A DNA stretch of 64,000 nt from Chitinophaga pinensis. Its GTDB lineage: Bacteria; Bacteroidota; Bacteroidia; UKL13-3. Shown here piece after piece: positions 2,183 through 62,679 of this stretch. The DNA lies in NCBI GenBank assembly GCA_945898275.1, contig CAMDHZ010000008.1:67542-131541 (forward strand), in the 5' to 3' direction. The translations under genes were made by a program, and so were the position numbers. Under the pieces are notes generated by a model. The model was given only the letters and a program-made list of their open reading frames with translations, did not search any database and had not been told where the DNA came from. Position 1 is the stretch's first letter. Each line of letters starts with the position of its first letter.

Positions 2183-2215
2183 AGGGACTTGGTTCAAACC
2201 GAGCCCCTTTTTTTT
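2183..2215 (+). terminator. Rho-independent terminator after the POT operon
   Basis: A GC-rich hairpin GGGACTTGG...CCGAGCCCC is followed by a T8 run. The loop holds a copy of the iterated GGTTCAAACC motif. Confidence 0.5.
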
Positions 2216-2219
2216 ATAT

Positions 2220-2945
2220 TTGACCATGCTGCAAAATGTAGATTTAACCAAAATATTGGTGTTAGACATCGAAACGGTGCCACAGTATTCTTCCTACGAA
2301 AAAATGCCAGAAACATGGCAATACCTTTGGAAGAAAAAGGCTGCCTCTCTTAAAAAAGAAGAAGACCAAACGGAAATAGATATCTATCCACGTGCGGGTA
2401 TTTATGCCGAGTTTGGTAAAATAGTCTGCATTTCTTGTGGGTTTTTTAGTAAAAATGGAAGCGAATATTTGTTTAGGGTAAAGTCGTTTTATGGGGAAGA
2501 AGAGAAACAGTTGTTGTATGAGTTTTCGGCCATGCTCAATACCCATTTCAATAAACCCGATCATTCTTTGTGTGCCCACAATGGTAAAGAATTCGATTAT
2601 CCATTTATTGCCAGGAGATGTTTGCTGAATGGATTGGAAATTCCCGCGATTTTAGATATAGCAGGTAAAAAACCATGGGAAATAAGCCTATTAGACACCA
2701 TGGAATTATGGAAGTTTGGCGATTATAAAAGTTATACTTCTTTGGAATTATTGGCCGCTTCTTTTAATATTCCTACACCTAAAGATGATATTGATGGGAG
2801 CATGGTTTGGAAGGTGTATTGGGAAGAAAACAACTTAGAACGCATTAATACGTATTGCCAAAAAGATGTGGTAACCACAGCTCAATTGTTGTTGCGGTTT
2901 AAAAATGAAAAGCTCCTGCAAGAATCGCAAGTGCAATTGCTTTGA
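2220..2945 (+). CDS. Predicted 3'-5' exonuclease, RNase H-like fold (related to the PolB exonuclease domain, COG3298-like)
   Basis: The product has the motifs ILVLDIETVP (Exo I DxE) and CAHNGKEFDYPF (Exo II-like). A TAnnTTTG-like element TATATTTG at 2212..2219 lies immediately upstream. Confidence 0.5.
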   Translation: MTMLQNVDLTKILVLDIETVPQYSSYEKMPETWQYLWKKKAASLKKEEDQTEIDIYPRAGIYAEFGKIVCISCGFFSKNGSEYLFRVKSFYGEEEKQLLYEFSAMLNTHFNKPDHSLCAHNGKEFDYPFIARRCLLNGLEIPAILDIAGKKPWEISLLDTMELWKFGDYKSYTSLELLAASFNIPTPKDDIDGSMVWKVYWEENNLERINTYCQKDVVTTAQLLLRFKNEKLLQESQVQLL

Positions 2946-2996
2946 GAATTAATAGTACATTCTTTGCTAGAAAAACTATGAATTTTCTGAATTAGA

Positions 2997-3389
2997 TTAT
3001 TTTTCCCAAGGGTTGATTAATTTTAAACCAATAATGGCGTTAAAGTCAGTAATATTTCGACTAAGTAAAGTAAGCCCATAAACGGAAGCTGTTGCAGCTA
3101 TAATTGCATCAGGTAATTTAATTTTGTGAATTCTTCGAATTTCTGCTGTTTTAGTTTTTATCTCTTTTTCTAACTCTATTACTAATGAATCATTTATAAA
3201 ATTTCTCAAAATTTCAAGGTCATAAGGTGTAGCTGTTTTCCAACAAAGCAATTCAATTTCTGTAATAGCCGAAATAACTGGTCGTTCGCTTATTAAAAGT
3301 TCATCTATAAAGATTTCAGCATTGGCTGGGAATTGCTGTTGCAAATAATAAATCACTGTATTTGTATCCCATAAATAATTTACTCCCAT
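2997..3389 (-). CDS. vapC: PIN-domain ribonuclease toxin, VapC-like
   Basis: 130 aa. The PIN acidic residues are in place (LWDTNTVI, ITEIELL, DAIIAATA, NITDF). It overlaps the upstream small ORF by 10 nt. Confidence 0.75.
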   Translation of the reverse strand: MGVNYLWDTNTVIYYLQQQFPANAEIFIDELLISERPVISAITEIELLCWKTATPYDLEILRNFINDSLVIELEKEIKTKTAEIRRIHKIKLPDAIIAATASVYGLTLLSRNITDFNAIIGLKLINPWEK

Positions 3390-3595
3390 TCTTCACGAAG
3401 TTCATTTAGCTGATTATCAATTTCGGACAAAGATTGCTTGGACATTGCTCCTTTATATTTATACTCCCAATTAGTTAAATTTTCAGCATGTTGACTTACT
3501 TTTCTCAGTCGAATAAGTTGTAGCTGCTCTAAATCCTGAAGAAGCTTAATAGCCTTATCGTTTATGATATCAATTGTAATCGTTTGCATAAACAA
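3380..3595 (-). CDS. Putative antitoxin partner of VapC (DUF2281-like)
   Basis: 71-aa ORF immediately upstream of the PIN gene and overlapping it, which is the usual type II TA arrangement. Confidence 0.5.
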   Translation of the reverse strand: MFMQTITIDIINDKAIKLLQDLEQLQLIRLRKVSQHAENLTNWEYKYKGAMSKQSLSEIDNQLNELREEWE

Positions 3596-3693: not shown

Positions 3694-4812
3694 CTAAGTC
3701 CCTAATTTCTGCATCAAGTTTTGAATAATCCCGCTCCAGCTATAGGTTTCAAAAAATTGTTTGGGTAATGTGTTTCGGTTTGAACCAAAATGCGTTTGAA
3801 TCAGTTGAATAAATGCATCCCAATCGTTGTCTTTGGCAATTTTGAGATGATCGCCACAAACCTTTGGGTCAATTCCTTCTGCACCTGTAACAGTTGAAAT
3901 TACCGTTTGGCCTCTTCCCAAAGTATCAATGGCCTTGGTTTTAACGCCACCTCCGCTTAGAATGGGATTAATCATAACATCGACACCATCAATATAAGTT
4001 TCGATGTCTTCTACAAAGCCTAGGTAATGGCAATTTTTTAGAACAGAAATGCCTTGAACCAATTCTGCTGGTAAGTTCTTGCCACAAATAAGGATGCTAA
4101 ACGTTTCTCCAATTTGTTGTTGTAGGCGAGGATAGATTTCATCCTTAATAAAAGCCACTGCATCGTAATTAGGTTTATAGCTTAGCGTTGCAAAAAACAA
4201 CAATAACTTATGTGTTGATGGAAGCTGGTGCCTCTCAAGCAATATCTGGCGCGCATTTTCAGTCTTGGTTGGCAATTCACTTTGTGGAATACCATATGGG
4301 GTGAGTAAGGTTTGGTTCAAACCTAAACCAAATTGCTGGATTGCTTTTTGTTGGTCTATGTCACTCACAAAAATCACCAAATTACTTTGCCTATAAACAA
4401 ATCTTTCATACACGTAAAGCAGGCGCCACCAAGGTTTCCCCATGCTTTTAAAGCGCAGGTATTCTATGTTATTGCTTCTTAAGAAAACTTTTTTGCCCGT
4501 AAGCCATTTGATAAAAGGAATCATCCAACCCATCCAAGGTTGGTCAAAGAAAATGGCATCTGCTTCAAAAGCGTTTATTTTTTTCAGCAGCTTAGGAAGT
4601 AAAAATACATTGGCATACCTAGAAGCTTTAAAGCGCATTCCAAATTCTAATTGAAAGCTAAATGCTTTGGGATTTATGGGTTGATAAGGGTCAACCGTAA
4701 ACACCATCACCTCATTTACCCTTGCCATGTACTCCAAAATGTTTTGGGTAGAAATTTCTCCACCGGTGGTGGCTGGCAAAAAGGGATAAGAGATGATGGC
4801 GTAGATTTTCAA
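3694..4812 (-). CDS. Glycosyltransferase family 4 (GT-B, group 1)
   Basis: 372 aa. The C-terminal GT1 motif reads GGGVKTKAIDTLGRGQTVISTVTGAEGI and includes the E-x7-E region. Confidence 0.8.
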   Translation of the reverse strand: MKIYAIISYPFLPATTGGEISTQNILEYMARVNEVMVFTVDPYQPINPKAFSFQLEFGMRFKASRYANVFLLPKLLKKINAFEADAIFFDQPWMGWMIPFIKWLTGKKVFLRSNNIEYLRFKSMGKPWWRLLYVYERFVYRQSNLVIFVSDIDQQKAIQQFGLGLNQTLLTPYGIPQSELPTKTENARQILLERHQLPSTHKLLLFFATLSYKPNYDAVAFIKDEIYPRLQQQIGETFSILICGKNLPAELVQGISVLKNCHYLGFVEDIETYIDGVDVMINPILSGGGVKTKAIDTLGRGQTVISTVTGAEGIDPKVCGDHLKIAKDNDWDAFIQLIQTHFGSNRNTLPKQFFETYSWSGIIQNLMQKLGT

Positions 4813-6339: not shown

Positions 6340-6879
6340 TTGGCTGAACAAAATGTTGTATTGAATAACCTTACTTTTGAATTACACATTCAGAACTCAG
6401 AAATTGAATTAAGAATAACGCAACTAGCAAAATTATTGGCAAAAGGGCATTCAAACGCCAATCCACTCTTCATATCAGTACTCAATGGTTCCTTTATTTT
6501 TGCTGCAGATTTGCTTAGGCAACTCGATTTTGCCTGCGAAATAGAGTTTGTAAAAGTGAGTAGTTATGCAGGAACCCAAAGCACTAGAGAGGTTAAACAA
6601 GTGTTGGGATTAAGTAAATCTATAGAAAATAGGACAGTAATTATCCTCGAAGATATTATCGATTCTGGTTTAACCATGGATTTTTTACTCTGCGACTTGG
6701 CTCGGTTCAAACCGAAACAAATAGAAATTTGTACTTTATTATTGAAACCGGAAGCTTTAAAAGTAAAACTTCCGGTTAATTATATTGGTTTTGAAGTAGC
6801 CAATGATTTTTTAGTAGGATATGGCCTAGATTATGATGGCCATGGCAGAAATTTGCCACATATTTATAAAGCGGTTTGA
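6340..6879 (+). CDS. hpt: Hypoxanthine phosphoribosyltransferase
   Basis: 179 aa with the PRPP-binding motif VIILEDIIDSGLT. The stop codon TGA lies inside a copy of the GGTTTGAACC motif. Confidence 0.85.
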   Translation: MAEQNVVLNNLTFELHIQNSEIELRITQLAKLLAKGHSNANPLFISVLNGSFIFAADLLRQLDFACEIEFVKVSSYAGTQSTREVKQVLGLSKSIENRTVIILEDIIDSGLTMDFLLCDLARFKPKQIEICTLLLKPEALKVKLPVNYIGFEVANDFLVGYGLDYDGHGRNLPHIYKAV

Positions 6880-6891
6880 ACCCAGCTTTAA

Positions 6892-9139: not shown

Positions 9140-9627
9140 ACCTTAGTTTCTTCAAAAGAGCCAGTTTGTTTGTTTTTGCGGCAATTGTCCCAAGTAAAAC
9201 ATTTTCCATTCATGGCAATATACACACCATGAGGCAAGGTTTGAGCAAAAGCTAGTGCGCTTCCAAGGTTAAATAAACCGTCGCTAGAGCCAAATTTATA
9301 GGGAATCATTGCGCCAGTTATAACGATAGTTTTGTTTTTTACGGTTTGAGCCAAAAAAGCGCCAGTGTCAGTCATTGTATCAGTGCCATGCGTGATGACA
9401 ATGCGTTCTTCTTCACAATTTTCGCAATTTTCTGCAATTAATTTGCGATCACTATCTGTCATGTCTAAGCTATCAATAAGCATTAACGTGCGAATGGAGA
9501 GGTCTAATTTACTGCGACCAAGTTTTAAAATTTCATGAATGTGACTGTCTTGAAAAAAAAGCTTTCCAGTTAATTCATTGTATTCTTTATCAAAAGTGCC
9601 ACCTGTTACAAATAATCTGATTGCCAT
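9136..9627 (-). CDS. Asparaginase N-terminal-domain protein (short, 163 aa)
   Basis: It carries VTGGTFD and [11 protein letters not shown], both L-asparaginase family signatures. Only the N-terminal domain is present. It is convergent with obg and overlaps it by 4 nt. Confidence 0.55.
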
Positions 9628-9829: not shown

Positions 9830-11680
9830 ATGACTGCACATATAGATAAAGAAGTTGAATCTGTAGTAATTCGCTTTGCCGGTGACTCTGGCGATGGGAT
9901 GCAACTTACAGGTACTCAATTTACTAATTCAACCGCCCTTTTCGGGAATGACCTAGCTACTTTCCCAGATTTTCCTGCTGAAATACGCGCCCCATTGGGC
10001 ACGCTGGCTGGCGTTTCGGGCTTTCAAATTCATTTTGGTTCAACCCGAGTTTATACCCCTGGCGACCAATGCGATGTATTGGTGGTTATGAACGTTGCGG
10101 CTTTGAAAGTTAACTTAAACGGCCTCAAAAAGGGGGGAGTTATCATTGTTAATACAGATGGATTTGATGCCAAAAACCTTCGTTTAGCGAATGTGCCCGA
10201 AGCAGATAATCCACTGAAAAATGATTCTTTGAGCGAGTATGATGTTAAAACCATCGATGTTACCAAAATTACAAGGACTGCCTTAGCAGATAGCGGATTA
10301 GGAACCAAGGAAATAGACCGTTGCAAAAACATGTTTGTTTTGGGTTTAATTTATTGGATGTACCACCGCGAAATGGACAATACCATAGATTTTATCAAGG
10401 CTAAATTCAAAAAGAATGAAGCAGTGATGAATGCCAATATCAAGACACTGACGGCTGGTTGGAATTACGGTGAAACCACAGAAATGTTTGCCAATAGGTT
10501 CAATGTAGCCAAAGCAAAAATGGACCCAGGTGTTTATCGAGGTATCATGGGAAATCAAGCAGCTACCTATGGCTTAATCGCCGCAGCAGTGAAATCTGGT
10601 TTGCCGTTGTTTTATGGTACCTATCCAATTACTCCCGCATCTGATATCCTGCATGAACTAAGCAAGTATAAGAACTTCGACATCAAAACCTTCCAAGCAG
10701 AAGATGAAATTGCAGGAATTTGTGCTGCTATTGGTGCATCTTTTGGCGGAAGTCTTGCAGTTACTGGTTCATCTGGCCCTGGTATTGCGCTTAAAACCGA
10801 AGCCATTGGCCTGGCAACCATGCTTGAACTGCCGCTTGTGGTGGTAAATGTTCAACGTGCTGGCCCAAGCACAGGTTTACCAACTAAAACCGAACAAGCA
10901 GATTTGTTACAATCCTTCTATGGAAGAAATGGCGAATGCCCAGTAGTTATTTTAGCTGCGCAATCGCCTGCAGATTGTTTTATCATGGCTTATGAGGCTT
11001 GCCGCATAGCCCTTGAACATATGATTCCTGTTTTCTTCCTTTCTGATGGATATATTGCAAATGGTGCAGAACCATGGAAATTCCCAACTGCTGCAGAATT
11101 ACCTGCAATTACAGTTGCTTTTGCAGAGGCTCGAAACAAAGGAGATGAACCTTTTATGCCTTACCTGCGTGATGAAAAACTAGGCAGACCATGGGCAGTT
11201 CCAGGAACAAAAGGCTTAGAGCATAGAATTGGTGGATTAGAAAAACAAAACATTACAGGTAATATCAGTTATGATGCAATGAACCATGAAAATATGGTGA
11301 AATTGCGTCAAGAAAAAGTGGATAGAGTTGCAAATTATATTCCAGCACAAGCTATAGACAATGGTCCGGAAGAAGGTGATTTGTTGATTTTAGGTTGGGG
11401 TGGAACTTACGGAGCACTTAAAACTGCAACCTTGCAACTTAGAGGAATGGGGTACAATGTTTCACATGCCCATTTGCGTTACCTTAATCCTTTTCCTTCT
11501 AACTTGGCAGAATTGTTAGGTAAGTTTAAAAAGGTGGTGATTCCAGAACTCAACAATGGACAATTGGTTAAAATTATCCGTGACAAATATTTTATAGACG
11601 CTATTCCATATAACAAAATCCAAGGTCAGCCCTTTATGGCCGCAGAAGTTGTTGCTAAAATTAAAGAAATACTCGACTGA
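9830..11680 (+). CDS. korA: 2-oxoglutarate/2-oxoacid:ferredoxin oxidoreductase subunit alpha
   Basis: 616 aa with fused alpha/gamma-type domains. The stop abuts the beta-subunit start. Confidence 0.8.
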
Positions 11681-11682: not shown

Positions 11683-12708
11683 ATGACAGATCTAGCAGAA
11701 AAATTAACAGCTAAAGATTTTTCTTCAGACCAAGAGGTGCGCTGGTGCCCAGGTTGTGGAGATTATTCTATATTAAAGCAAGTTCAAACTGTTTTACCAG
11801 AATTGAACCGACCAAGAGAAGAGTTTGTTTTCATATCAGGGATAGGTTGCTCTTCGCGCTTTCCTTATTACATGGATACTTTTGGTATGCATTCTATTCA
11901 TGGTCGTGCAACAGCCGTGGCTACGGGCTTAAAATCAACCCGCCCAGAGCTTTCAGTATGGATTATCACTGGCGATGGAGATGCCTTATCTATTGGTGGA
12001 AACCACTTCATTCATTTGCTACGCCGCAATCCGGATGTGAATGTATTGTTGTTTAACAACCAAATTTATGGGTTAACAAAAGGACAATATTCTCCAACAT
12101 CTGAGCAAGGTAAGGTAACCAAATCAACGCCAATGGGAAGTTTGGATTATCCTTTTAATCCTATTGCTTTGAGTCTTGGTGCAGATGCAACTTTTGTGGC
12201 ACGCAGCATGGATAGAGACCCGAAGCATTTGCAAATGGTAATCAAAAGAGGCTATGAGCATGCAGGTACTTCCTTGGTGGAAATATACCAAAATTGCAAT
12301 GTATTCAATGATGGCGCATTCGAAATATTTACCGAAAAAGGTTCTAAGAAATTAGAAACCATTATGCTCGAAAATGGCAAGCCACTTGTGTTTGGTGAAA
12401 ACAATGATAAGGGTATAAAACTCGATGGGTTCAAACCGATAATTGTTGATTTGAACGATGCTTCAGTAAACGACCTTTGGATACATGATGAAGAAGACTT
12501 GGTTAAAGCCACTATACTCTCTAGGTTTTATGATGATCCAAGTATTGAAGGTCATTTCCCAAGACCGTTTGGCATTTTCTATGTTAACAACAAGAAAGAA
12601 ACCTTCGATAATTTGTTCAATGCGCAAATCGCATATGCCAAAGAAACTTTTGGCAAAGGAGATTTAGACAAATTGATTGCAGGTAAAGAAACTTGGGTTG
12701 TTAATTAA
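11683..12708 (+). CDS. korB: 2-oxoglutarate/2-oxoacid:ferredoxin oxidoreductase subunit beta (TPP-binding)
   Basis: It has the [10 protein letters not shown] cysteine motif and the TPP-binding GDGD…NN region. It starts 3 nt after korA. Confidence 0.8.
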
Positions 12709-12828
12709 TTTTTTGGTTTCGGTTTGAACCGATGATAAAAACATAAATGTTGTTTTTGTTTGGATTTTTAATTTGTAAATTATTAAGAAATGTAATTCTT
12801 AATTTTGAACTAATTAAACAACATAACC

Positions 12829-15411: not shown

Positions 15412-15443
15412 TTTCAGTTAGAGATTGGGTTCAAACCTAACCT

Positions 15444-18833: not shown

Positions 18834-19520
18834 ATGAATTTTAGACTAATAATCCTTTTCTTTTTTGTGCTCGGTTTGAACCTAAAGCCAGTTCAGGCTT
18901 GCAAGTGTTCCCTTATTTCCATTGAAGATAATTACAAACGTGCCGGATTAATTTTTTATGGTAAACATTTAGGTTCTTTTACCTCAAAAGAAGTTTTTGA
19001 TGCAAATGGTAAACCCCTAAAAGTTGAGAATTTTCAAGTCATTCGCTTTTATAAGGGTGCTGATGATGCTGTTTTAAAACAAGACAGCGCCTTTAAAATT
19101 TCTTTGCAATCTACTTGCAACGAAACTTCTTGTGGCTTTTGTTTTAATGCTGGCAAAAACTATTTGGTTTACGCCTCCATGCACGAGGGCGTATTGGGTG
19201 TTGAAACCGATTTGTGCTCACGTAGTAAAGAGATTATGCAAAACAACTTTATTATATCTGGAGGGGTAGACCCAGATGCTGGAAAAGACGAAACCAAAGA
19301 ATTGATGCGTCTTGCAGCCAATGATACCATTCCTAATAACTTAGTTGCTCAAGGCTTGAAATGGCATGAAAATAAGCTAGCAGATGAAGAAATAAAAAAG
19401 CGTTTACAAAAGGAATTAAGAAAGAAAAATAGTATGAGTCTAACCTTAGCTACCACCACCTTAATCTTATTTTTTTATGTAATTTTGGGTTGGTTCAAAC
19501 CGAATAGAAAAAAGGTTTAA
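18834..19520 (+). CDS. Membrane-anchored secreted protein with a possible NTR/TIMP-like N-terminal domain
   Basis: After the signal peptide the mature N-terminus is CKCS…, which is CxC-like as in TIMP/NTR modules. The segment …VIRFYKGA resembles a TIMP OB-fold strand. A C-terminal TM helix is present. Confidence 0.35.
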   Translation: MNFRLIILFFFVLGLNLKPVQACKCSLISIEDNYKRAGLIFYGKHLGSFTSKEVFDANGKPLKVENFQVIRFYKGADDAVLKQDSAFKISLQSTCNETSCGFCFNAGKNYLVYASMHEGVLGVETDLCSRSKEIMQNNFIISGGVDPDAGKDETKELMRLAANDTIPNNLVAQGLKWHENKLADEEIKKRLQKELRKKNSMSLTLATTTLILFFYVILGWFKPNRKKV

Positions 19521-47989: not shown

Positions 47990-47992
47990 AAT

Positions 47993-50131: not shown

Positions 50132-51432
50132 TAATAGGTTTTTTATTGTTATTTTCTTTCGTTTCAAATGCTCAAACGCCTGCTGAAACTTATATTGATA
50201 GTCTTAGTTATGCCTTTTTTAATCAGTATGACTATTCAGAATTAAAACAACTCGGCAAAGAAAGTTTAAAGCAAGGAATAGATTTCTTTTACCTCAGAAC
50301 GCGATTGGGAATTGTTGCTTTTAGAGAGGCAAATTATGAAGCAGCTTGGCATCATTTTGAAAAAGCAGAAAAAATGCAATCTGGCGATAATGTGGTTTTA
50401 GAATATCTCTATTGGAGTTACGTATATACAGGACAAAATGATAAGGCAAATGCCTTGTATGAAAAATATCAAAGTTTGGTTCAAAGCATTCTCCCTGGAA
50501 TAGCCAATAAACAACAAAGCGAAATTGAAATAGGCACACTGCAAACCCAAAACCAAAAGAATTACTTTGATCAGGTGTTAAGAAAAACGGGTGATGCCTA
50601 TGCTGGTGGGAGTTTCTTTTCTTCCATGCATTACTTAAGGTTGTATCATGAACAAAGATTTAAACATAATTGGAGAATCTTTGCTGGTGCTGGAATGTAT
50701 CAGGTGCAAAGTTTTTCAAATGTTTGGACCGAAAACCAATTTCCACCACCCGATAGCTTTTCCTTAAGCCAAAGCGATCCAAATGTTCAGCTTAATTTTG
50801 GTTTATCAAAGTTGTTTTCAAAGGGCATTCGTGCATCTTTTTCTGCAAGTTATTATCATGAAAGATTTACCTCAAATGGTCAGAATACTCAACAGAGTTT
50901 GCTATCTAATAATTATTATGGTGTTGCTGCGGCTATAAGTAAGCGATTTAAATCGTTTGAGCCTGTTGTATTAGTTTCAGTTTTTGATGTTGACGCTGCC
51001 GATAGAATTCAAGTTGAGGCTGGAATTACTTTATTCCCATTTAAAAAGAATAACTTCTTTTCTTTTTCTTCAATTGGTTATGCAAATAATCAGTTTACAC
51101 AAACAAGTGGTTTGATAGCTTTACAGAAATTGGGTTATCATTTTAACAAAAGCACCATGGTTCAAACTTCTTTTTTATATGGTGAGCTAGATAACTATAT
51201 GGGAAATCTAGGATTTGTTACCCTCAATACTTTCGATCCAGTTGATTGGATTGGTTCGGTTCAAGCCGAATTTAAAAAAGGTAAATTAACTTGGTTACCA
51301 GGGTATCAATTGCAATCAAGAAGTAGTTTTTATTCACAATCTCAATCTCTAAACAATATTGAAGATTATAGCAATACAGAATATTCTTATTTTAGTCACT
51401 TAATTTATTTAACCTTAAGATATACACCTTAA
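50113..51432 (+). CDS. Hypothetical secreted protein, possible outer-membrane beta-barrel
   Basis: It has a signal peptide (LLLFSFVSNAQ). The N-terminal part is TPR-like and helical. The C-terminal part has an alternating beta-strand pattern. It overlaps the upstream gene. Confidence 0.4.
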   Translation: MAMHKLIIGFLLLFSFVSNAQTPAETYIDSLSYAFFNQYDYSELKQLGKESLKQGIDFFYLRTRLGIVAFREANYEAAWHHFEKAEKMQSGDNVVLEYLYWSYVYTGQNDKANALYEKYQSLVQSILPGIANKQQSEIEIGTLQTQNQKNYFDQVLRKTGDAYAGGSFFSSMHYLRLYHEQRFKHNWRIFAGAGMYQVQSFSNVWTENQFPPPDSFSLSQSDPNVQLNFGLSKLFSKGIRASFSASYYHERFTSNGQNTQQSLLSNNYYGVAAAISKRFKSFEPVVLVSVFDVDAADRIQVEAGITLFPFKKNNFFSFSSIGYANNQFTQTSGLIALQKLGYHFNKSTMVQTSFLYGELDNYMGNLGFVTLNTFDPVDWIGSVQAEFKKGKLTWLPGYQLQSRSSFYSQSQSLNNIEDYSNTEYSYFSHLIYLTLRYTP

Positions 51433-53268: not shown

Positions 53269-53921
53269 TAAACTTGTGGAATTAGATTTTGCTTTTTAAG
53301 AGATGAACAAATGCTATTGGGAACATTTCTATAATAAACATAAGTTCTTAGGTTAGCTTTTTTTACCCTAAATTGTTTTTTGGCTCGAGCAAAAAATTCT
53401 GCATCTGCTGCAAAACTGTCCCTAAAAAATAGAGTTGTAAATACTTCTCTTCTCCCAAATAAGGTGGCAAATAAGGTACATTCATCTACATGTATTAAGC
53501 GAGTTATGTCATTTTTATCCGGAACATAATAGTCTTCCAAACTATCCACAACTGTTTCTGTAGAAGAAGAAATTAAATCTACATAATCCATTTCTTGCAG
53601 GCAGGCGCTTAAGTGATGCGGTTTATAGGCATCATCGCTGTCAATGATGGTAATAAATTCTCCCACACTCTTAACTATCCCGCGATTGATAGACTGTGAT
53701 TGACCGCAGTTGCTATGTCTCATGTAAATGATTTTATCTTCATTTAATTCAACATATTTTGCAATTTTACGGCTGCAACTCAACTCACTGCCATCGTCAA
53801 TAATAATAAATTCAAAATCTTGCAAATCTTGGTTCAAAACCGAATCTATAGCCCTCTTTACCAATGCGAAATCAGTATTGTAAACAGCCATTAAAACAGA
53901 TACTTTTACTTGATTTGACAT
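53268..53921 (-). CDS. Glycosyltransferase family 2
   Basis: The N-terminal GT-A motifs are VSVLMAVYNTD and FIIIDDGSEL (DxD). Confidence 0.8.
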   Translation of the reverse strand: MSNQVKVSVLMAVYNTDFALVKRAIDSVLNQDLQDFEFIIIDDGSELSCSRKIAKYVELNEDKIIYMRHSNCGQSQSINRGIVKSVGEFITIIDSDDAYKPHHLSACLQEMDYVDLISSSTETVVDSLEDYYVPDKNDITRLIHVDECTLFATLFGRREVFTTLFFRDSFAADAEFFARAKKQFRVKKANLRTYVYYRNVPNSICSSLKKQNLIPQV

Positions 53922-54093: not shown

Positions 54094-55467
54094 ATGAAAC
54101 GAAAAATTTACTTTTTAGCTTTATTTTTCTTAAGTTATAGCGCTGCTATTGCACAAATTTCGCCAGATTTAACGGGTAGACTGCAAAACACACTTGATAG
54201 TATTTGCACAAAATACAAGGTTAAAGGTGCTTCTGCTGCTTTGCTTTTGCCTAATGTTGGCACATGGACAGGCACCTTTGGAATCTCTAAACCAGGTGTA
54301 CCCATATCTCCACAAATGGCCTTAGGAATGGGTAGCAATACCAAAACCTATATTGCAGCTCTCCTGCTAAAATTACAAGAAAAAGGTTTGTTAGATTTAG
54401 ATGATTCTATTGGTAAATGGATTCAAGGTTACCCAAACATCAATACCAGCGCTAGCATTAGGCAATGCCTAAATCACACCTCTGGTAATAAAGAATATTT
54501 GAACGCTAGTTTTAACGATAGCCTTCTTTTAAATCCACCTAAAATCTGGACCATGGAAGAAGTATTAAGTACTGTTGGTGCGCCCAACTTTGCACCTGGA
54601 GCTTCTTGGGGCTATTCAAATACCAATTTTATAGTAGCTGGAATCATTATTGAAAAGGTGGCTAAAATGTCTTTTGCCAATGCAATGAGTGTTTATGTTC
54701 TTGAACCTAATAATTGGAATAGTACTTTCTTTTTTGGCGAACCAAATCCGGCACCTATTCCTAGTCAGTGGACCATGAACCTTACAGGAACCAGCTTGGT
54801 TGAAATGAATACTTATCCAATAAATATTATCAATCAATTGTTTAGTGCTGCGGGCCCCGCAGGGGCCATGATGGTAACAGCAGAGGAGAATGTTCAATTC
54901 TGGTACAAACTTATCAAAGGTGATTTATTATCTAAAGCATCGCTTCAAGAAATGACCAGCACCGTTAGGCTAAATAATTCTGTGTCTTATGGCCTTGGAA
55001 TTTTTAGGTATAACAGAGAAATAAATAACCGCACTATATACTGTCATGGCGGAACTTTTATTGGCTTCATCAACGAGAATGCAGTTGACACACTTTCGGG
55101 CGTTACCATTTCTGTATTAACCAATCAAGATAGTTTAGATAACGATTTTCTGTTATCTGTAGTTATTCCAGCCTTGCACAAACATGTGCTTAATGCGCCG
55201 CCAACTGGCATAGATGACTTTAACAACAATGCCTCATTTAAACTTTTTCCAAATCCTGCCAATGATTTTGTGAATATCGATTATCCTTTGGCTAATGCAA
55301 ATGATGTTTGCCAAATCATTGATATCAATGGGAGAATTGTGAAGCAACAGTTCTTGGTTCAAACCAAGCTAAACCTTACCGACTTAAACAATGGCGTTTA
55401 TTTCTTGCAAATTTTTAAGCACAATGGCAATGCTGTTTTAACGCAAAAACTTGTTGTAGCACACTAA
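54094..55467 (+). CDS. Class C beta-lactamase-related serine hydrolase with a T9SS C-terminal sorting domain
   Basis: It has a signal peptide and the SxxK active-site motif GSNTKT. The C-terminal sorting domain reads FKLFPNPANDFVNIDY…. Confidence 0.7.
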   Translation: MKRKIYFLALFFLSYSAAIAQISPDLTGRLQNTLDSICTKYKVKGASAALLLPNVGTWTGTFGISKPGVPISPQMALGMGSNTKTYIAALLLKLQEKGLLDLDDSIGKWIQGYPNINTSASIRQCLNHTSGNKEYLNASFNDSLLLNPPKIWTMEEVLSTVGAPNFAPGASWGYSNTNFIVAGIIIEKVAKMSFANAMSVYVLEPNNWNSTFFFGEPNPAPIPSQWTMNLTGTSLVEMNTYPINIINQLFSAAGPAGAMMVTAEENVQFWYKLIKGDLLSKASLQEMTSTVRLNNSVSYGLGIFRYNREINNRTIYCHGGTFIGFINENAVDTLSGVTISVLTNQDSLDNDFLLSVVIPALHKHVLNAPPTGIDDFNNNASFKLFPNPANDFVNIDYPLANANDVCQIIDINGRIVKQQFLVQTKLNLTDLNNGVYFLQIFKHNGNAVLTQKLVVAH

Positions 55468-55513
55468 AAACTATTTTTTAAATAAGTTTCGGTTTGAACC
55501 AAACACCGATAAT

Positions 55514-55553: not shown

Positions 55554-56148
55554 TAAAATTTACTTTTAAGCCTATAGCGCGGTTTTCTATGCCAGGGCTG
55601 TAAACTAAATAAAGTGTTTTTCCTTTCAATTCTTTTAAATCAATGTTGCTTTTTCCAGGTTCAAAAATACTGCTAACACTTCTTAAGCCTATCCAATTAT
55701 CCTTTGTGGTTCCCCAAACTTGATCAAATCGAATAAATTCCTCATCCTCAGAAAACGCATATAGGCAGTGGTAACCGTCAGAAGCATTGTTTACAACACT
55801 TAAATCATGGTCTTGGTTCTTACTGTTTTCGGCAAAGGTTTGTGGTGGCGTAAATACATCAATTTTCTCTAATTGATTGAGGTTGGCATAATGATAGGCC
55901 ATCGAATCATAACTGCAATTTAGAAACACACAATCTGTATTTTGGGTAGAAAAGTATAATCTAAAAGAGTCTGTGCTTAAAACAATTTCTTTAGTTTTAT
56001 CTGTTATCACCAAGCTGTCTTTTCCTTGCACAATGCTAAGAGTGGTTTTAGGAAGAGTATCATTTGAATTGATCCAATTCCCCATTAACTTTTGGTTCAA
56101 ACCAAATGAAAACAGAAGGACAATAATAATTATGTGTTTAAATTTCAT
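55549..56148 (-). CDS. Hypothetical secreted protein
   Basis: 199 aa with a signal peptide. I saw no recognisable motif. Confidence 0.45.
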   Translation of the reverse strand: MKFKHIIIIVLLFSFGLNQKLMGNWINSNDTLPKTTLSIVQGKDSLVITDKTKEIVLSTDSFRLYFSTQNTDCVFLNCSYDSMAYHYANLNQLEKIDVFTPPQTFAENSKNQDHDLSVVNNASDGYHCLYAFSEDEEFIRFDQVWGTTKDNWIGLRSVSSIFEPGKSNIDLKELKGKTLYLVYSPGIENRAIGLKVNFK

Positions 56149-57295: not shown

Positions 57296-58195
57296 TTATT
57301 TATTTATTACAATACGATGAAAGCTACAGCTTTGTTTGCTGCTCAATTTTAAGATATAATTACCTGACGCTAGTTGGTTCAAACCGTAAACCTTTGACGC
57401 AACAGTTACGCCTTCCTTTACCAAGTTTCCTGTTAATTCATAAATAGTAAAATTAGCCTCTTCAATTAATCCATTAATATGTAAAGTTTCTATGCAAGGA
57501 TTTGGAAACAAGGTCAATTGACTTTGTGAATGTTCGCGTACCGAATTTGAATAGGTTAATTTTAAATCATCTAGCATAAGTAAACTTCCTGCAATTGGAC
57601 TAAATCCATCTCTGCTTGAGCTTGCAATAAATGACATGGAGTCTGGTGTAAGATCTGAAACATACACAAAAGGTACATTTGCCTCTGTATAACTAGATAC
57701 AATTGAATCCATTTCAAAATTTGCAAAGCCAATTGTATCACGGTTGCCATCAACCCATTTAGTTAAAAGCATGAAAACAATATTTGCATCTTTTGGTTCA
57801 GGAAATGCCTGATACCAAAATAGAATAGAATTTGGCCTACCATTAAAAGCAACTCTGTTTTTTTCTATGTCTGGTAAACCGTTTATACCTATAATATTTT
57901 GAGCAGTTAATAGGCCAGGTATGCTAGTTGTCGGTCCTAACATCGATTCTAGCATTACAGCCTTACTGCCAACTTTTGCATTGCTTGTTTCAAAAGTGGA
58001 TTCTTCAAATCCAAAGGCTTTCAGCAGGTTTAAGGTATACCAGCCTTGTGGGTCTTGATAGTTGGTGCCATTAAAGGTTTTGGTTTCCCAATTTTCAAAT
58101 CCAAAATTTGGCAACTGCGCCTGCCCAATACTTTTATTGGTTAACAGCACTCCTAATAGCAAAAATACTAAAGTGTAAAAATTATTTGTTTTCAT
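57296..58195 (-). CDS. Secreted T9SS cargo protein, function unknown
   Basis: It has a signal peptide and the C-terminal sorting domain LTLFPNPCIETLHINGL…. Confidence 0.5.
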   Translation of the reverse strand: MKTNNFYTLVFLLLGVLLTNKSIGQAQLPNFGFENWETKTFNGTNYQDPQGWYTLNLLKAFGFEESTFETSNAKVGSKAVMLESMLGPTTSIPGLLTAQNIIGINGLPDIEKNRVAFNGRPNSILFWYQAFPEPKDANIVFMLLTKWVDGNRDTIGFANFEMDSIVSSYTEANVPFVYVSDLTPDSMSFIASSSRDGFSPIAGSLLMLDDLKLTYSNSVREHSQSQLTLFPNPCIETLHINGLIEEANFTIYELTGNLVKEGVTVASKVYGLNQLASGNYILKLSSKQSCSFHRIVINK

Positions 58196-58371: not shown

Positions 58372-60906
58372 TTGAATTTTCGTTGGATAGAAATACCTTG
58401 CATCCATCATATGAATAAGTATTTCAAATATTTTTTAATTTCGCTATTAAGCATCTTGGGATTAATAGGATTAACCTTTGTACTTATCTATCAAAACATT
58501 GAGACCTTACAAAAATATGCATTAGACGAATTAAACAAGAACCTAAAAGCTCCCCTCACCACAAAAGAAATTTCAGTTTCTATTTTCACTACTTTTCCTA
58601 TGGTGAGCCTAGAATTTAAAGAGGTAAATATAGCTGATCCATTAAGGAAAAACATCAGTTTGATTGAGGCGCAAAGACTTTATCTTGGTTTTAATATTGT
58701 TGATGTTATTAATAAAAAATATAAAGTTCAACTTATTGAAATTGACAGCGGCAGCATAAATATGTACGTTAACAAAAAGGGTCGCAAAAATTTTGATATT
58801 CTTAAATCGCAACCAGAATCTAAAGAAAAATTAAACACTTCCGATGCATTTTCCTTTCAGTTAAATAAGGTTGGTTTGAACCGAATCAGAATCAATTATG
58901 AAGACAAATCTGCCTTAACACATCTAGACGTTTTTGCCAAAGAAGCTGAAATACACGGACAGTTTACTGAGAAAGAATTTGAAATGGAAGTCAAACTTAG
59001 TGGCCTTTGTCATCAAATGAAATTTGGAACTTTAGCTCTTTTTAAGCAAAAAACATTAAACCTTAACCTAGCATTTCAAGTTGATAATACAACCAATAAT
59101 TATCTTATCAAAAAAGGAGAATTTGCCATAAATACGCTTTTTTTACACCTTACGGGCGATTTGAGGTTTGAACCCAAAAAAGCAAATTATAACCTTGCAT
59201 TTTCAACCGAAAAAATAACCATTCAAGACCTTATTTCCATCATGCCGTTTGAAATGCCAAGTCATATTAAAACCTACGCTTCTCAAGGTAAAGTGTACTT
59301 TAAAGGTAAATATGCTGGCACACAATCCAATCTTGCAAGTCCACAATTATTAGTCGATTTTGGAATTGAAGAGGGGCAATTAATTGAGCCTGAAACCGGT
59401 ATTAAAATTGAAAATATTAATTTAAATGGGAGTTACAAAGGCAATAACGATTTATCAAGATCAACACTTACTATCCCTTCTTTAAATGCTAAATTTTCAG
59501 GCTCGCAAATAAGAGGAAATTTGCAATTAACAAATTTGCTCAATCCGTCTTTATTTGCAGAATTAAACGGCAATGCCGACCTAAAAGCGCTTAATAGTTT
59601 TTTAAAGCTAGAAGACGTAAAGTCAATCAATGGAAACCTAGAATTTTCTCTAACTGTAAAAGGATCTCAAAAGGATAGTGCTTGGATTTGGGATTCGAAT
59701 TTTTCTCAAGGGATATTTAAAATGGAAATTCCTGAGCTTACCCTTACCTATATTAATAAGCCTTTTAATAAGGTTCAATTAGTTGCAGGACTTAGCGGTA
59801 GTAATTTATCAATAGACAAACTAACTTTTCAAATTGGCGAAAGCGATTTTGATTTAAATGGGAAGTTTCCAAGTTTCTTGTCTGCTTTTGGCAAACAAAA
59901 AGAGGTATTTCAAGGTAATCTCAATCTCAAATGCAATCTTCTTAACTCAAATGATTTGCTGATTTATAATGCAAGTGATCCTAAAGAGAATGATGATGCT
60001 TCCTTCCAATATAAAATTGGATTAAACCTTATAGCCAATAAATTTGTATATAGTAATTTCATCGCTGCCAACCTTAGTTGTAAAACTATTCTTGTTCCCA
60101 ATAAAACAGAAATTCCATATTTTAGCTTGCAAACTTGCTCAGGAAGCTTTGCTGGAGAAGCCTCTTGGCAAATGGTTCCAGAGGGCTACGTTCTCAAAGC
60201 CAATCACCAAGCAACGCATATAGATTTAACTCAATTACTAGCGTCCTTTAATGATTTTGGTCAAACCGAAATTACCTCAAAACACTTAAAAGGCTTGCTT
60301 TCGGCTCAAACCGATATGATTATTTACTTCGACCCCGAAATGAAAGTATTAAATAAAAAGTTATTGTTGGTTTCAACCCTCAATATGAAACAAGGGGAAT
60401 TAATTGACTATAAACCGCTTTTAGGTTTGTCTAGATTTGCTGATGTTTCAGAACTTAAACACCTTAAGTTCTCCGAATTGAATAATACTTTAACAATTAA
60501 AAATAATATCATTAGTATTCCAGAAATGGACATTAAAACCAATGCCATTAATTTAGGTCTTAGCGGTAAACATGGCTTTGACAATGAAGTAAATTACAAG
60601 GTCAAATTGGCTTTATCGCAGTTGCTAAACAAAAAACGAAAAATTCAACCTAACGAATTTGGGGAGGAAGATCCCGTTTCAAAAAACTGGATTATCTATG
60701 TTAGCATTGAAGGCTCATTAAACAACCTTAGATATTCTTTCGACAAAAATGGATCGACCGTTCAGTTAAAAGAAGAAGTAAAAAAAGAAAAAGAAAACAT
60801 CAAAGAAATTCTAAAACAAGAATTTCAAATTAAGAAAGATACCAGTCTTAAAAAAGTTGAAACCAATAATAATAACCCTGATGAACTTGAATTTGAAGAA
60901 GAGTAA
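58372..60906 (+). CDS. Large membrane-anchored AsmA-like protein with a charged C-terminal tail
   Basis: It has an N-terminal TM helix and a long beta-rich body. The C-terminal segment is K/E-rich and ends EEE. The true start may be the internal Met at 58414. Confidence 0.5.
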   Translation: MNFRWIEIPCIHHMNKYFKYFLISLLSILGLIGLTFVLIYQNIETLQKYALDELNKNLKAPLTTKEISVSIFTTFPMVSLEFKEVNIADPLRKNISLIEAQRLYLGFNIVDVINKKYKVQLIEIDSGSINMYVNKKGRKNFDILKSQPESKEKLNTSDAFSFQLNKVGLNRIRINYEDKSALTHLDVFAKEAEIHGQFTEKEFEMEVKLSGLCHQMKFGTLALFKQKTLNLNLAFQVDNTTNNYLIKKGEFAINTLFLHLTGDLRFEPKKANYNLAFSTEKITIQDLISIMPFEMPSHIKTYASQGKVYFKGKYAGTQSNLASPQLLVDFGIEEGQLIEPETGIKIENINLNGSYKGNNDLSRSTLTIPSLNAKFSGSQIRGNLQLTNLLNPSLFAELNGNADLKALNSFLKLEDVKSINGNLEFSLTVKGSQKDSAWIWDSNFSQGIFKMEIPELTLTYINKPFNKVQLVAGLSGSNLSIDKLTFQIGESDFDLNGKFPSFLSAFGKQKEVFQGNLNLKCNLLNSNDLLIYNASDPKENDDASFQYKIGLNLIANKFVYSNFIAANLSCKTILVPNKTEIPYFSLQTCSGSFAGEASWQMVPEGYVLKANHQATHIDLTQLLASFNDFGQTEITSKHLKGLLSAQTDMIIYFDPEMKVLNKKLLLVSTLNMKQGELIDYKPLLGLSRFADVSELKHLKFSELNNTLTIKNNIISIPEMDIKTNAINLGLSGKHGFDNEVNYKVKLALSQLLNKKRKIQPNEFGEEDPVSKNWIIYVSIEGSLNNLRYSFDKNGSTVQLKEEVKKEKENIKEILKQEFQIKKDTSLKKVETNNNNPDELEFEEE

Positions 60907-60925
60907 ATTACTCTTAATGGCATTA

Positions 60926-61660
60926 TTTGCCCTAGTATGTATTAAAAATTCGAATGCCCAATCTAAATCCAAATTTGGTTTTGTAGGGTCGGTCAATATT
61001 GGTTATGGGTCTGCTTTTATTTCTGATGAAAAATACCAACAATTCATGGATACCATGCAATCCAAAACCAATAGTGTTTTAACCAAATCTGTAAATGGAT
61101 GGTTCATGTATAGTTTCAGTAAGAAAGTAGACTTGCTTTTTGGAATTGGCTACCAAGAAGCTGCTTTTGGTAGAAGACAAAGTAATTTAAACTTTAAAAA
61201 TTACACCTATCCTGGTATCGGAATTGGTAAAATAGAAGACCTCTCTAATCTTGAAAGGGGAATACAATATACCTATCGTTTTAGCTATTTAAATTTACCT
61301 TTTCAAATGATGTTAAATACTGGACGATCAAGCGATTATAAATGGACATTTAGCTTTGTACCTGGTGCCGCCCTAAATATTCTAATGAACCATAAAATGA
61401 TAGCTAATTTAGATGATGGATTTACCATTGACCTAAAAGATAAATTTACTTTAGACTCAACTGGATTCAAAGCAAGACCAATTGCTATCAATTTTAGCGC
61501 TGGATTTAGGTTCCAAAAAAAGGATGAAGATGGGAAGTCTTATTTTTTACAGCCCATGGCAATGGTATATCCGCTTTCTGTAACAAGTGCAGATTTAAAA
61601 GCTGTGCCTTGGTCTATTTCTCTGCAATTTGGTGCAATATTTTCTGCCTCTAATAAGTAA
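60926..61660 (+). CDS. Putative outer-membrane beta-barrel protein
   Basis: I took the start at MALFALVCIKNSNAQ (60926). The earlier ATG at 60857 overlaps the upstream gene. The product has an alternating amphipathic beta pattern. Confidence 0.45.
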   Translation, partial: FALVCIKNSNAQSKSKFGFVGSVNIGYGSAFISDEKYQQFMDTMQSKTNSVLTKSVNGWFMYSFSKKVDLLFGIGYQEAAFGRRQSNLNFKNYTYPGIGIGKIEDLSNLERGIQYTYRFSYLNLPFQMMLNTGRSSDYKWTFSFVPGAALNILMNHKMIANLDDGFTIDLKDKFTLDSTGFKARPIAINFSAGFRFQKKDEDGKSYFLQPMAMVYPLSVTSADLKAVPWSISLQFGAIFSASNK

Positions 61661-62115
61661 TGGAAATTAATAGATTTACCATTCGGGTTTATGGTTTATT
61701 ATTTAATGAACATAAACAAGTTTTATTGGTGCACGAGAAAATGCCACATTTACATTTTACCAAGTTCCCAGGAGGTGGGTTAGAATTTGGTGAAGGCACT
61801 CGAGACTGTCTGGTTAGAGAATTTATGGAAGAATCGGGTTTAGAAATTAGAGTAAAAGATCATATTTATACGACAGATTTCTTTCAACCTAGCGCATTTA
61901 GAAAAGGCGACCAGCTTATGGCAATTTACTACCAAGTTGAACTTTCCCATCCTGCACAAACTGTTTCGCTTGAAGAAATTACCTTAACCATTGGCGATAA
62001 AAATGAAACCTTAAGGTTTTTTTGGAAAAATTTAGATGAACTAGACCCAGAAAAAGATTTAAGCTTCCCAATTGATAGAATTGTGGCACGAAAATTTCTC
62101 TCAGAAAAGTTATAA
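61660..62115 (+). CDS. NUDIX hydrolase
   Basis: The Nudix box reads GGGLEFGEGTRDCLVREFMEESGL (Gx5Ex7REUxEExGU). Confidence 0.8.
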   Translation: MEINRFTIRVYGLLFNEHKQVLLVHEKMPHLHFTKFPGGGLEFGEGTRDCLVREFMEESGLEIRVKDHIYTTDFFQPSAFRKGDQLMAIYYQVELSHPAQTVSLEEITLTIGDKNETLRFFWKNLDELDPEKDLSFPIDRIVARKFLSEKL

Positions 62116-62124
62116 TTATTCAAC

Positions 62125-62679
62125 ATGAAACATCTTAAAATATACTTTCCCTTATCTTTATTATTAATCCTAATTGCTTGTGGCTCATCTAAAAATGGTC
62201 TGAACCAAGTGAAGATACCTTTTAAAGGCAATGCCTATGAATCTAATCGCAGGTTTTTTAGAAGTGTTGCCAGTGGCGAAAGTATTAACTTAGAAACTGC
62301 GCGCAGTAAAGCCTTACTTATCGCAAACCAACGCATCGCATCCTCGGTTCAAACCGAAATAAAAAATGTAACCGAAAACTACTTAAATGAAAGAAAAGAT
62401 GGTAACCAACTTGGTGATTATGGCGAACGATTTCAACAACTTACCCGAGAAGTGATGAGCACAAGCATCAATGGAATGCGAACTTTTGATGAAAAAGTTT
62501 TTATGAAAACTGATAAATCCTACCAAGTTTGGGTAGCAGTAGAGGCTAGAAAAAAAGATATTTACAAGAGAATGAAGCAAACTGCAAAAGAGAGAAGTAC
62601 CTTAAGCGAAAAAGAGAAAATTGCCATTGCAGAAATGATAGATAAAGCCATTGAAGATACTGGTGATTTAGATAACTAA
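62125..62679 (+). CDS. Lipoprotein, function unknown
   Basis: It has a lipobox LLILIACGSS. The mature part is charged and helical. Confidence 0.5.
   Translation: MKHLKIYFPLSLLLILIACGSSKNGLNQVKIPFKGNAYESNRRFFRSVASGESINLETARSKALLIANQRIASSVQTEIKNVTENYLNERKDGNQLGDYGERFQQLTREVMSTSINGMRTFDEKVFMKTDKSYQVWVAVEARKKDIYKRMKQTAKERSTLSEKEKIAIAEMIDKAIEDTGDLDN

Follow-up and report, generated by a model that had tools for sequence, protein, structure and literature searches.

To our knowledge, classic DNA uptake sequences are confined to two proteobacterial families: the Neisseriaceae, with the DNA uptake sequence (DUS; GCCGTCTGAA or AT-DUS), and the Pasteurellaceae, with the uptake signal sequence (USS; AAGTGCGGT, Hin and Apl types). 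Cyanobacterial HIP1 (GCGATCGC) is the only other word of this hyperabundant kind that we know of, and it has recently been proposed as a third case. Here we describe an oriented 15-mer, TTGGTTCAAACCGAA, that recurs throughout a 64-kb stretch of contig CAMDHZ010000008.1 (positions 67,542 to 131,541; hereafter the window) from a lineage of uncultured freshwater (pond or lake) Bacteroidota. The 15-mer appears to add a further phylum to those with hyperabundant words resembling uptake sequences, and its architecture is quasi-palindromic. We tentatively propose, with slightly less than even confidence, that it could be the first sequence-specific DNA uptake signal in Bacteroidota, with dialects among sister lineages.

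In Neisseria, about 2,000 DUS copies lie ~1.1-1.5 kb apart, and the strong conservation of the motif is not matched by the DNA on either side, which stays at background level (PMC2397512); flanks in our comparison are 74-88% identical. Each of the two words has an oriented core, a 10-12-mer, with weaker bases on its flanks, and each occurs about once per kilobase on both strands, in genes and at gene ends. In both, copies are highly conserved amid unconserved surroundings, and some are too diverged from their orthologues to be explained by simple point mutation (PMC2397512). As with the DUS dialects, sister lineages here probably have part of the word in common and vary in the rest. The sequences, however, are unrelated and belong to different phyla, the half-sites here are nearly palindromic, and terminator-forming inverted pairs are common for DUS and absent here. 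ComP, the DUS receptor of Neisseria, is a type IV minor pilin.

USS, as reported in two accounts (PMC1626085, PMC3458573), is likewise hyperabundant in coding regions in several frames, leaves a peptide imprint, has family-level subtypes, and is accompanied by many imperfect copies. It differs in carrying helically phased AT-rich flanks, where the word described here has G-A-A and mild A-richness, and in having a measured uptake specificity, whereas our word is known from genomic sequence alone. HIP1 sites, those with one mismatch included, are conserved beyond codon and peptide constraints (PMC5861425), and two preprints newly tie HIP1 to natural transformation (bioRxiv 10.1101/2024.09.10.611283, 10.64898/2026.06.24.733823). 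HIP1 and the word described here are both hyperabundant in-gene words found across a lineage, and the function of HIP1, long unknown, is now proposed to be transformation related. HIP1 is nevertheless a perfect 8-bp palindrome that holds methyltransferase sites and occurs phylum-wide, in contrast to an asymmetric 15-mer with a CA center in a genus-to-family-level clade only. Natural transformation is present in Bacteroidota with partly unique machinery: in Riemerella anatipestifer it requires ComEC, DprA, ComF, RecA, and four proteins of unknown function (PMC8459023), and transformation genes of that species include RA0C_RS04920, RA0C_RS04915, RA0C_RS02645, and RA0C_RS09020. Riemerella columbina favors its own DNA, but poly-A words were all that a k-mer search turned up there, and no uptake sequence has been found (PMC7965970). 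The searchable literature contained nothing relevant on the literal 10-mer or on uptake sequences in Bacteroidota or Bacteroidetes.

In content the window is unremarkable for a Bacteroidota chromosome: ~93% of it is coding, with genes for POT transporters, adenylate kinase, Obg, a KorAB-like oxidoreductase, PriA, peptidases, two-component systems, one tRNA-Val, and at least eight proteins with a type IX secretion (T9SS) C-terminal sorting domain. It holds 30 exact sites of GGTTYRAACC, 16 as GGTTCAAACC, 13 as GGTTTGAACC, and one as GGTTCGAACC, where 100 dinucleotide-preserving shuffles average 0.27 and never exceed 2. The exact word TNGGTTCAAACC occurs 29 times, compared to 0.23 and 0.8 in simulated order-3 and order-5 Markov sequences of the window (~35- to 125-fold enrichment), and its one-mismatch forms occur 23 times, compared to 2.6 and 6.5. 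A maximal-order (k-2) Markov expectation was dropped as uninformative, with an observed/expected ratio of ~1, since the motif itself makes up most occurrences of each of its sub-words; shuffles and order-3 and order-5 simulations were therefore used. The hyperabundance of GGTTYRAACC claimed in a preliminary description of the window is confirmed by these numbers, and a comparison with higher-order Markov expectation, which it had suggested as a genome-wide check, leaves the observed count in the window far above expectation. Exact copies reach a density of 0.45 per kb, and allowing up to one mismatch raises this to 0.8 per kb (51 sites, 30 exact plus 21, or one per 1.2 kb). Copies are spaced in a Poisson-like manner (coefficient of variation, 0.87, versus 0.97 under random placement), with no regular spacing or clustering found across the 64 kb.

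Read along the GGTTCAAACC strand, all 30 copies have T at -2; position -1 is mixed (T15, G6, A5, C4), and position +1 is mostly G (G18, A8, T4, C0), followed by A at +2 in 23 copies and at +3 in 18. Positions -1 and +1 are not mirror images (C at -1 versus G at +1, Fisher P = 0.0004), and the consensus is therefore the asymmetric TTGGTTCAAACCGAA, in which a T-N-GGTTCAAACC core is followed by G-A-A. Its 5' half (TTGG-TCA) is hard and its 3' half softer: one-mismatch copies carry 4 changes in the 5' half and 17 in the 3' AAACC (P = 0.007), with T-2, GG, and TC unchanged in every one. These asymmetries of flanks and mismatch load overturn the 16-bp palindromic consensus, TTCGGTTYRAACCGAA, that had been proposed earlier. 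The view of the motif as essentially palindromic does not survive either. Of the 30 copies, 29 have CA/TG as the central dinucleotide and one has CG, with TA never seen, leaving both perfect-palindrome centers nearly absent, and variants in sister lineages, such as TTGGTTCAGACCGAA, are non-palindromic.

Beyond the exact word, TTGGGTCA and TTGGATCA are enriched 5- to 6-fold as well, with A-N-CC as a frequent continuation. Downstream of the core there is only G-A-A plus mild A-richness, and pairwise identity over 80 flanking bases is 0.276, compared to 0.270 expected, leaving the copies unique outside -3 and +13. Unique flanks exclude a miniature inverted-repeat transposable element (MITE) or a longer repeat, and the copies are isolated words, as had been supposed.

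Most copies (25 of 30, 83%) lie inside open reading frames (ORFs), 14 in the sense and 11 in the antisense direction. All five stop-free frames are used (GSN 4, FKP 4, VQT 6, GLN 8, FEP 3), and the sixth, which holds TGA, is used once, as a stop codon. The frame readings in the preliminary description (GSN at 14752 and 31700; FKP at 6704, 12428, 19492, and 47505; VQT at 29072, 39496, and 55356; GLN at 4314 and 18873) were all right, and its argument that selection acts on DNA rather than peptide is supported by the five frames, the 14/11 split, and the 16-bp footprint described below. The other five copies are intergenic or at gene ends, compared to 6.6% non-coding DNA (P = 0.045). As reported before, the copy at 2191 sits in a terminator, at the apex of a 13-bp intrinsic stem followed by T8 (-15.8 kcal/mol), and the TGA of the 6873 copy ends the phosphoribosyltransferase ORF at 6340-6879; those at 12721, 15428, and 55491 are intergenic when checked against the ORFs. 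The four intergenic copies other than 2191 form weak hairpins only, and the window has a single copy in one terminator stem with no inverted pairs of copies acting as terminators.

To follow these sites outside the window, relatives were sampled through Obg across 80 GTDB species (loci labelled L001 onward), and ~0.4 Mb from relatives was examined along with the 64 kb. The nearest representative is the metagenome-assembled genome (MAG) JAIYAT01, 91% identical to the window in nucleotides, and JAIYDE01 (GCA_027487655.1; locus L147) is 94% identical; loci L147-L152 represent strains 94-96% identical. The MAG JAIYCU01 (GCA_027487835.1), at ~80% nucleotide identity, served as the reference for a footprint comparison. 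Positions -3 to +12 of the motif sites are identical at 185/192 bases (96.4%), compared to 522/648 (80.6%) in the flanks (P = 7.8e-9). Identity climbs from 74% at -12 to -4 to 92% at -3 to -1 and 97% in the core, reaches 100% at +10 to +12, and falls to 88% at +13 to +21 and 78% at +22 to +39. This 16-bp peak amid diverging coding DNA argues for constraint on the DNA and not on the surrounding protein, and the footprint takes in the asymmetric flanking bases (T-2, G+1, A+2, A+3). Conservation in related genomes, suggested at the outset as a check, is thus evident as 96% identity in the motif versus 81% in adjacent coding DNA.

Compared to relatives at 91-94% identity, the motif core is identical at 149 of 150 bases. 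Among 26 aligned copies in five related loci (L001, L147, L002, L153, and L003), 24 coincide with window copies and the other 2 with one-mismatch copies in the window. Judging from these alignments, copies in relatives are shared by orthology, not independently inserted. In five comparisons, copies were conserved over background 10-mers at 8/9 (background, 0.51), 6/6 (0.62), 4/7 (0.20), 4/5 (0.12), and 2/5 (0.10). At 12428 and 47505, the orthologous codons of distant relatives already encode a compatible peptide (GFKP), whereas at 4314 they are unrelated in sequence. The orthologous alignments over motif sites are gap free, with no indels.

The density of exact copies falls steeply with Obg identity, from 4.5 per 10 kb in the window to 3.8 at 98%, 2.4 at 94%, 1.7 at 90%, 0.43 at 78-84% (281 kb), and 0 below 75% (952 kb). 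The word has also marked the proteome: motif-encoded tripeptides are 2.2-3.6 times and tetrapeptides 9-55 times more common in the window, L001, and L147 than in distant loci, a comparison whose P values are inflated by the orthologous overlap of these three. Only ~2.4 kb of non-syntenic sequence could be compared with relatives, and this amount, too small to be informative, has 0 copies. Within the window, genes of accessory type for a PIN toxin (2997-3389), a RelE/ParE toxin (16858-17205), an AAA ATPase (17562-18704), and a Fic protein (23711-25270) have no exact or one-mismatch copy; they total ~3.4 kb, which is too small, and the direction is as expected if foreign DNA lacked the motif.

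In six sister loci of the 78-84% group (L005, L007, L008, L009, L010, and L021), the 5' half TTGGTTCA is enriched 4.6- to 13.5-fold; other loci at that distance show no such enrichment, and the MAGs behind L011, L012, L014-L018, and L020 are among the motif-free sisters. The 3' half differs in the six enriched loci, often reading G(A/C)CCGAA in L010, L009, and L008, where the word is, for example, TTGGTTCAG(A/C)CCGAA, and AAC(A/T) in L021. Sister lineages likely use dialects of the word, a grading short of proof because the counts per locus are small (6-12). Further afield, a pattern scan of JGI metagenomes gave, among the matches listed, at least ~7 contigs clearly of the lineage, carrying genes for serine hydroxymethyltransferase, an aminoacyl-tRNA synthetase, ribosomal protein S1, aspartate carbamoyltransferase, or T9SS cargo, with 2-4 copies in 2-12 kb. 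Independent housekeeping contigs carry the word, and the motif is therefore not peculiar to the 64-kb region; among the same listed matches, no lineage contig carried competence genes. A scan of IMG/VR for TTGGTTCAAACCGAA returned 66 stretches, 65 of them with a single match and the last with two side by side. The 10-mer core was present at most once in any viral locus there, and therefore no phage is enriched.

The word is hyperabundant and oriented yet free of strand bias, its copies have unique flanks and a footprint at the DNA level, and it has marked the proteome; it is confined to a single lineage, with variation resembling dialects. This combined genomic signature is that of DUS and USS, and we therefore rank as most likely that the word marks self DNA for natural transformation and has been spread by uptake bias plus recombination, a reading on which our confidence is about evenly divided. 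The likeness to DUS, USS, and HIP1 noted in the preliminary description holds for overall behavior; the functional analogy is one that we infer. DNA uptake would then be the selective agent, and the lineage would be naturally competent with a sequence-specific receptor. As for DUS in Neisseria and USS in Pasteurellaceae, the 15-mer would act as a species-group "self" tag on double-stranded DNA. A DNA receptor for natural transformation would prefer fragments bearing the word, and these would enter the cell and be recombined into the chromosome at a higher rate than alleles lacking it. Any point mutation giving rise to a copy, or to a better one, would therefore spread in the population by molecular drive, and decayed copies would be replaced. 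The word could in this way reach about one copy per kilobase wherever the encoded protein tolerates it, reshaping local amino acid sequence, and a few copies might be co-opted, for example, as a terminator hairpin apex or a stop codon.

Several observations weigh against an uptake signal. The lineage is represented by uncultured MAGs, as genomic sequence alone, and the window contains no competence genes. Neither DUS nor USS has near-palindromic half-sites of this kind (GGTT..AACC, T..A), which would also suit some other, dimeric DNA-binding protein, and the inverted pairs that so often make terminators of DUS are missing from the window. Uptake drive predicts depletion in accessory DNA, and there are too few accessory segments to show it. 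Most sites are old and genus-wide, which fits upkeep by any selection and not specifically drive, and the dialect evidence comes from 5-12 copies per locus.

The half-site symmetry fits a different explanation, in which an abundant DNA-binding protein specific to the lineage, or an orphan methyltransferase, binds or modifies the word. The word would then be maintained by purifying selection and serve chromosome organization, repair, or self-marking, much as HIP1 was read before 2024. GGTT/AACC half-sites with T/A at +/-2 suit a dimer, the sites are old and conserved across the genus, both strands carry copies with Poisson-like spacing, and HIP1 sites are likewise under selection and recognized by methyltransferases (PMC5861425). 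Yet the centers that would perfect the palindrome are the rare ones (CG 1, TA 0, CA/TG 29), constraint is strongly asymmetric, sister dialects are non-palindromic, no DNA methyltransferase or restriction-modification gene lies within the window, and HIP1 itself is now being tied to transformation. A site of this type is possible but, in our judgment, unlikely. We know of no nucleoid or segregation site that is ~100-fold enriched as a 12-15-mer in genes without strand skew. The same quasi-palindrome might instead be a non-functional by-product of biased mutation, repair, or gene conversion that turns near-matches into the motif, for example, through very-short-patch repair tied to a modification enzyme or through template switching. 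At some sites, 4314 for one, many substitutions within 10 nt separate the copy from its orthologues, which suggests patch replacement rather than stepwise mutation. A by-product is improbable, however: one-mismatch neighbors are enriched 3.5- to 9-fold and not depleted, template switching would perfect the palindrome while the center remains CA, and the footprint includes asymmetric flanking bases. Known repair biases, moreover, give enrichment below a few fold.

Being asymmetric, the word is orientable, and it is very frequent, as a polar replication-oriented signal would be, either a Chi-type recombination hotspot or KOPS/AIMS guidance of FtsK. Like these octamers it is a short, asymmetric, over-represented chromosomal word; unlike them, it is unskewed and ~100-fold enriched, where they are skewed to the leading strand and enriched a few fold, and Chi and KOPS octamers are far shorter than a 15-mer. 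Strand use over the 64 kb is 16/13 for exact copies and 30/22 with one-mismatch copies included, both departing from a 75:25 skew (P = 0.016 and P = 0.005), and GC skew across the window tracks gene orientation only. We consider such a role very improbable. The preliminary description had also set it aside, correctly, albeit on grounds of palindromy; the rejection holds because there is no strand skew. Least probable of all is a set of readings in which the word is an RNA-level element (a hairpin, terminator, or processing signal), a repeated peptide, or a mobile repeat of the MITE or REP type. The 2191 copy does lie in a good terminator, 40-nt windows taken around copies have slightly more stable folds than random ones (-6.9 versus -4.2 kcal/mol), and gene ends have more than their share of copies. 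On the other side stand the mixture of sense and antisense copies in five frames, the weakness of the other intergenic hairpins, the lack of an Rfam match for any copy, and an unconvincing -1/+1 covariation (~20/30 pairable versus ~17 expected, by hand count). REP/BIME, Correia/NEMIS, and MITE-like repeats are similarly dispersed, partly palindromic, and in part close to gene ends, but they are extragenic units of 20-150 bp spread by insertion, whereas here 15-bp words, 83% of them in ORFs, have unique flanks and orthologous alignments without insertion. RNA, peptide, and mobile-repeat readings are refuted as a general explanation and hold only for co-opted copies (the 2191 terminator and the 6873 stop). 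Mimicry of a tRNA T-arm was also rejected, the word being one base short with its stem unpaired and the window's sole tRNA unrelated to it. Resemblances to the Bacteroidota promoter TAnnTTTG, IHF sites, dif, and Dnd GAAC/GTTC sites either were mismatched or gave no account of the over-representation.

Should the word indeed be a transformation signal, abundant uncultured freshwater Bacteroidota would carry out self-biased natural transformation with a receptor unrelated to ComP, and uptake sequences would have arisen independently in at least three bacterial phyla. Sequence-biased transformation would extend to a phylum in which competence is barely studied and its machinery partly novel, and the 15-mer with its dialects could serve as bait in a search for the receptor. 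It would also provide a lineage barcode for binning and for spotting foreign DNA in MAGs, and it would show how far an uptake word can reshape protein sequences. Even without an uptake function, a 16-bp DNA footprint about every kilobase inside genes calls for explanation.

At the left end of the window, the terminator copy TTGGTTCAAACCGAG (2189..2203, +) follows the ORF at 648-2156 and is conserved in L001 and L003. The glycosyltransferase ORF at 3694-4812 (-) holds TTGGTTCAAACCGAA in sense (3774..3788, -; GSN) and TTGGTTCAAACCTAA in antisense (4312..4326, +; GLN), the latter where orthologous codons of distant relatives are unrelated. The phosphoribosyltransferase ORF reads TCGGTTCAAACCGAA as FKP (6702..6716, +) and ends on the TGA of TGGGTTCAAACCGCT (6870..6884, -). 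In the beta subunit of a 2-oxoacid:ferredoxin oxidoreductase (ORF 11683-12708), TGGGTTCAAACCGAT (12426..12440, +) encodes a GFKP peptide that is kept in distant relatives, and TCGGTTCAAACCGAA (12718..12732, -) is intergenic, directly past that ORF. A T9SS-cargo ORF (12829-15411) follows with TTGGTTCAAACCGAA (14750..14764, +; GSN), and TGGGTTCAAACCTAA (15426..15440, +) is intergenic, between convergent ORFs. The ORF at 18834-19520 has two copies, TAGGTTCAAACCGAG in antisense (18870..18884, -; GLN) and TTGGTTCAAACCGAA read as FKP (19490..19504, +). Two more fall in the M1-peptidase ORF at 25297-28527 (-), TAGGTTCAAACCTCC in antisense (25699..25713, +) and TTGGTTCAAACCAAC in sense (25912..25926, -; VQT), and a Smr-domain ORF (28587-29540) reads TTGGTTCAAACCGAA as VQT (29070..29084, +). 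The ORF at 30101-32359 has three: TTGGTTCGAACCAAC (30401..30415, +), which is the sole CG-centered, perfectly palindromic copy; TAGGTTCAAACCGAG in antisense (31260..31274, -; FEP); and TTGGTTCAAACCGAA (31698..31712, +; GSN).

In the right half, TAGGTTCAAACCGAA lies antisense in the DUF748 ORF at 36319-39033 (37258..37272, -; common to L147 and L153), a protein for which a metagenome search found no relatives. The next ORF (39038-40267) carries TAGGTTCAAACCGAA again in antisense (39075..39089, -; FEP) along with TTGGTTCAAACCATA (39494..39508, +; VQT; common to L147 and L153). TGGGTTCAAACCAGG (42417..42431, -) is close to the 3' end of a TPR-cyclase ORF (42412-45213, -). Both TGGGTTCAAACCAGA (47503..47517, +), read as GFKP in the ORF of a pyridoxal phosphate (PLP)-dependent decarboxylase (46631-47989), and TTGGTTCAAACCGAC (48791..48805, -), antisense in the ORF at 47993-50131, are common to L147 and L153. 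A beta-lactamase/T9SS ORF (54094-55467) reads TTGGTTCAAACCAAG as VQT (55354..55368, +), and TTGGTTCAAACCGAA (55488..55502, -) is intergenic between convergent ORFs. Antisense copies follow as TTGGTTCAAACCAAA in the ORF at 55549-56148 (-) (56092..56106, +), TTGGTTCAAACCGTA in the ORF at 57296-58195 (-) (57374..57388, +), and TCGGTTCAAACCAAC (58870..58884, -) and TGGGTTCAAACCTCA (59162..59176, -; FEP) in an AsmA-like ORF (58372-60906). The rightmost copy, TCGGTTCAAACCGAA (62344..62358, +), is read as VQT in the ORF at 62125-62679. Exact-copy positions in the preliminary description were all right save 3776, which is really 3777.

Twenty-one one-mismatch copies lie among these. On the plus strand they are TTGGTTCAACCC (10035..10046 and again 13961..13972), TGGGTTCAAACT (21125..21136) and TGGGTTCAAAGC (21386..21397), both within priA, TAGGTTCAAACA (38072..38083), TTGGATCAAACC (38515..38526), TAGGTTCAGACC (38621..38632), TTGGTTCAAAAC (42010..42021), TTGGTTCAAACT (48678..48689), TTGGTTCAAAGC (50476..50487), TCGGTTCAAGCC (51256..51267), TTGGTTCAAAACCGAA (53829..53840; one mismatch or one insertion), and TCGGCTCAAACC (60301..60312). 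Those on the minus strand are TTGGCTCAAACC (9343..9354), TTGGTTCAAAAC (22378..22389), TTGGTTCAATCC (22411..22422), TTGGATCAAACC (27184..27195), TGGGTTCAAACA (28208..28219), TAGGTTCAAACT (33836..33847), TTGGTTCAAATC (40152..40163), and TTGGTTCAGACC (62197..62208). TAGGTTCAGACC and TTGGTTCAGACC equal sister-lineage dialects, and the L153 sites orthologous to TTGGTTCAAATC and TTGGTTCAAAGC are exact. Variant positions given earlier were right for 21127, 51258, 53831, and 46697, the last two being one-base-insertion forms; 10039, 13983, and 38044 should read 10037, 13963, and 38074.

Other features of the window and its relatives were noted along the way. The window's only Rfam or ARAGORN hit is the tRNA-Val (anticodon TAC) at 56234-56309 (-), which is unrelated to the motif. 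Obg loci of relatives contain short tandem arrays (L019:11024-11215, L006:8175-8445, L009:2387-2445, L056:37-120, and L053:8493-8525) whose repeat unit differs by lineage, among them the heptanucleotide arrays (TACATCG/TACATTG)n with ~28 units, (AATTACG)n in two inverted blocks, (TAATTCA)n, and (GAGTTAT)n, as well as a hexamer array, (ATGAAA)n. In a more distant Bacteroidota MAG (67% Obg identity), the 12-mer AAAAAATGCTTT is dispersed in 12 copies over 12 kb on both strands (L046:559-11778), each with TATAT(G/A) ~14 nt upstream; it may act like a promoter element or be a further hyperabundant word specific to its lineage. Two sampled GTDB records, L020 ("Vulcanococcus limneticus," the name of a cyanobacterium) and L033 ("Candidatus Competibacteraceae"), have Obg 79% and 66% identical to that of the window; L020 aligns to ~7 kb of the window's Obg neighborhood and L033 across the Obg gene only, and both are probably mislabelled or mis-binned MAGs.

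A conserved cluster at 45300-50131 comprises a PqqD-like ORF of small size, which is called in relatives immediately upstream of 45580, together with an ATP-grasp enzyme, the PLP-dependent decarboxylase, which is of the Orn/DAP/Arg type, and a fusion of a urea-transporter-family protein with an M23 peptidase domain. Its gene order is the same in L147, L153, and L154, and it may represent a peptide-modification or small-molecule pathway. Where the window has positions 52463-52498, L147 has two extra ORFs (15834-17833) of 357 and 235 amino acids with no Pfam hit, sitting between an AHSA1-like gene and the next, and collinearity with the window is lost downstream of 53993. With the TTG start listed by program, the CBM96/T9SS ORF (4651-6333) has 160 nt in common with the beginning of the divergent glycosyltransferase ORF (3694-4812), and its true start is probably further downstream. 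In L001, this whole CBM96/T9SS gene is replaced by unrelated sequence.

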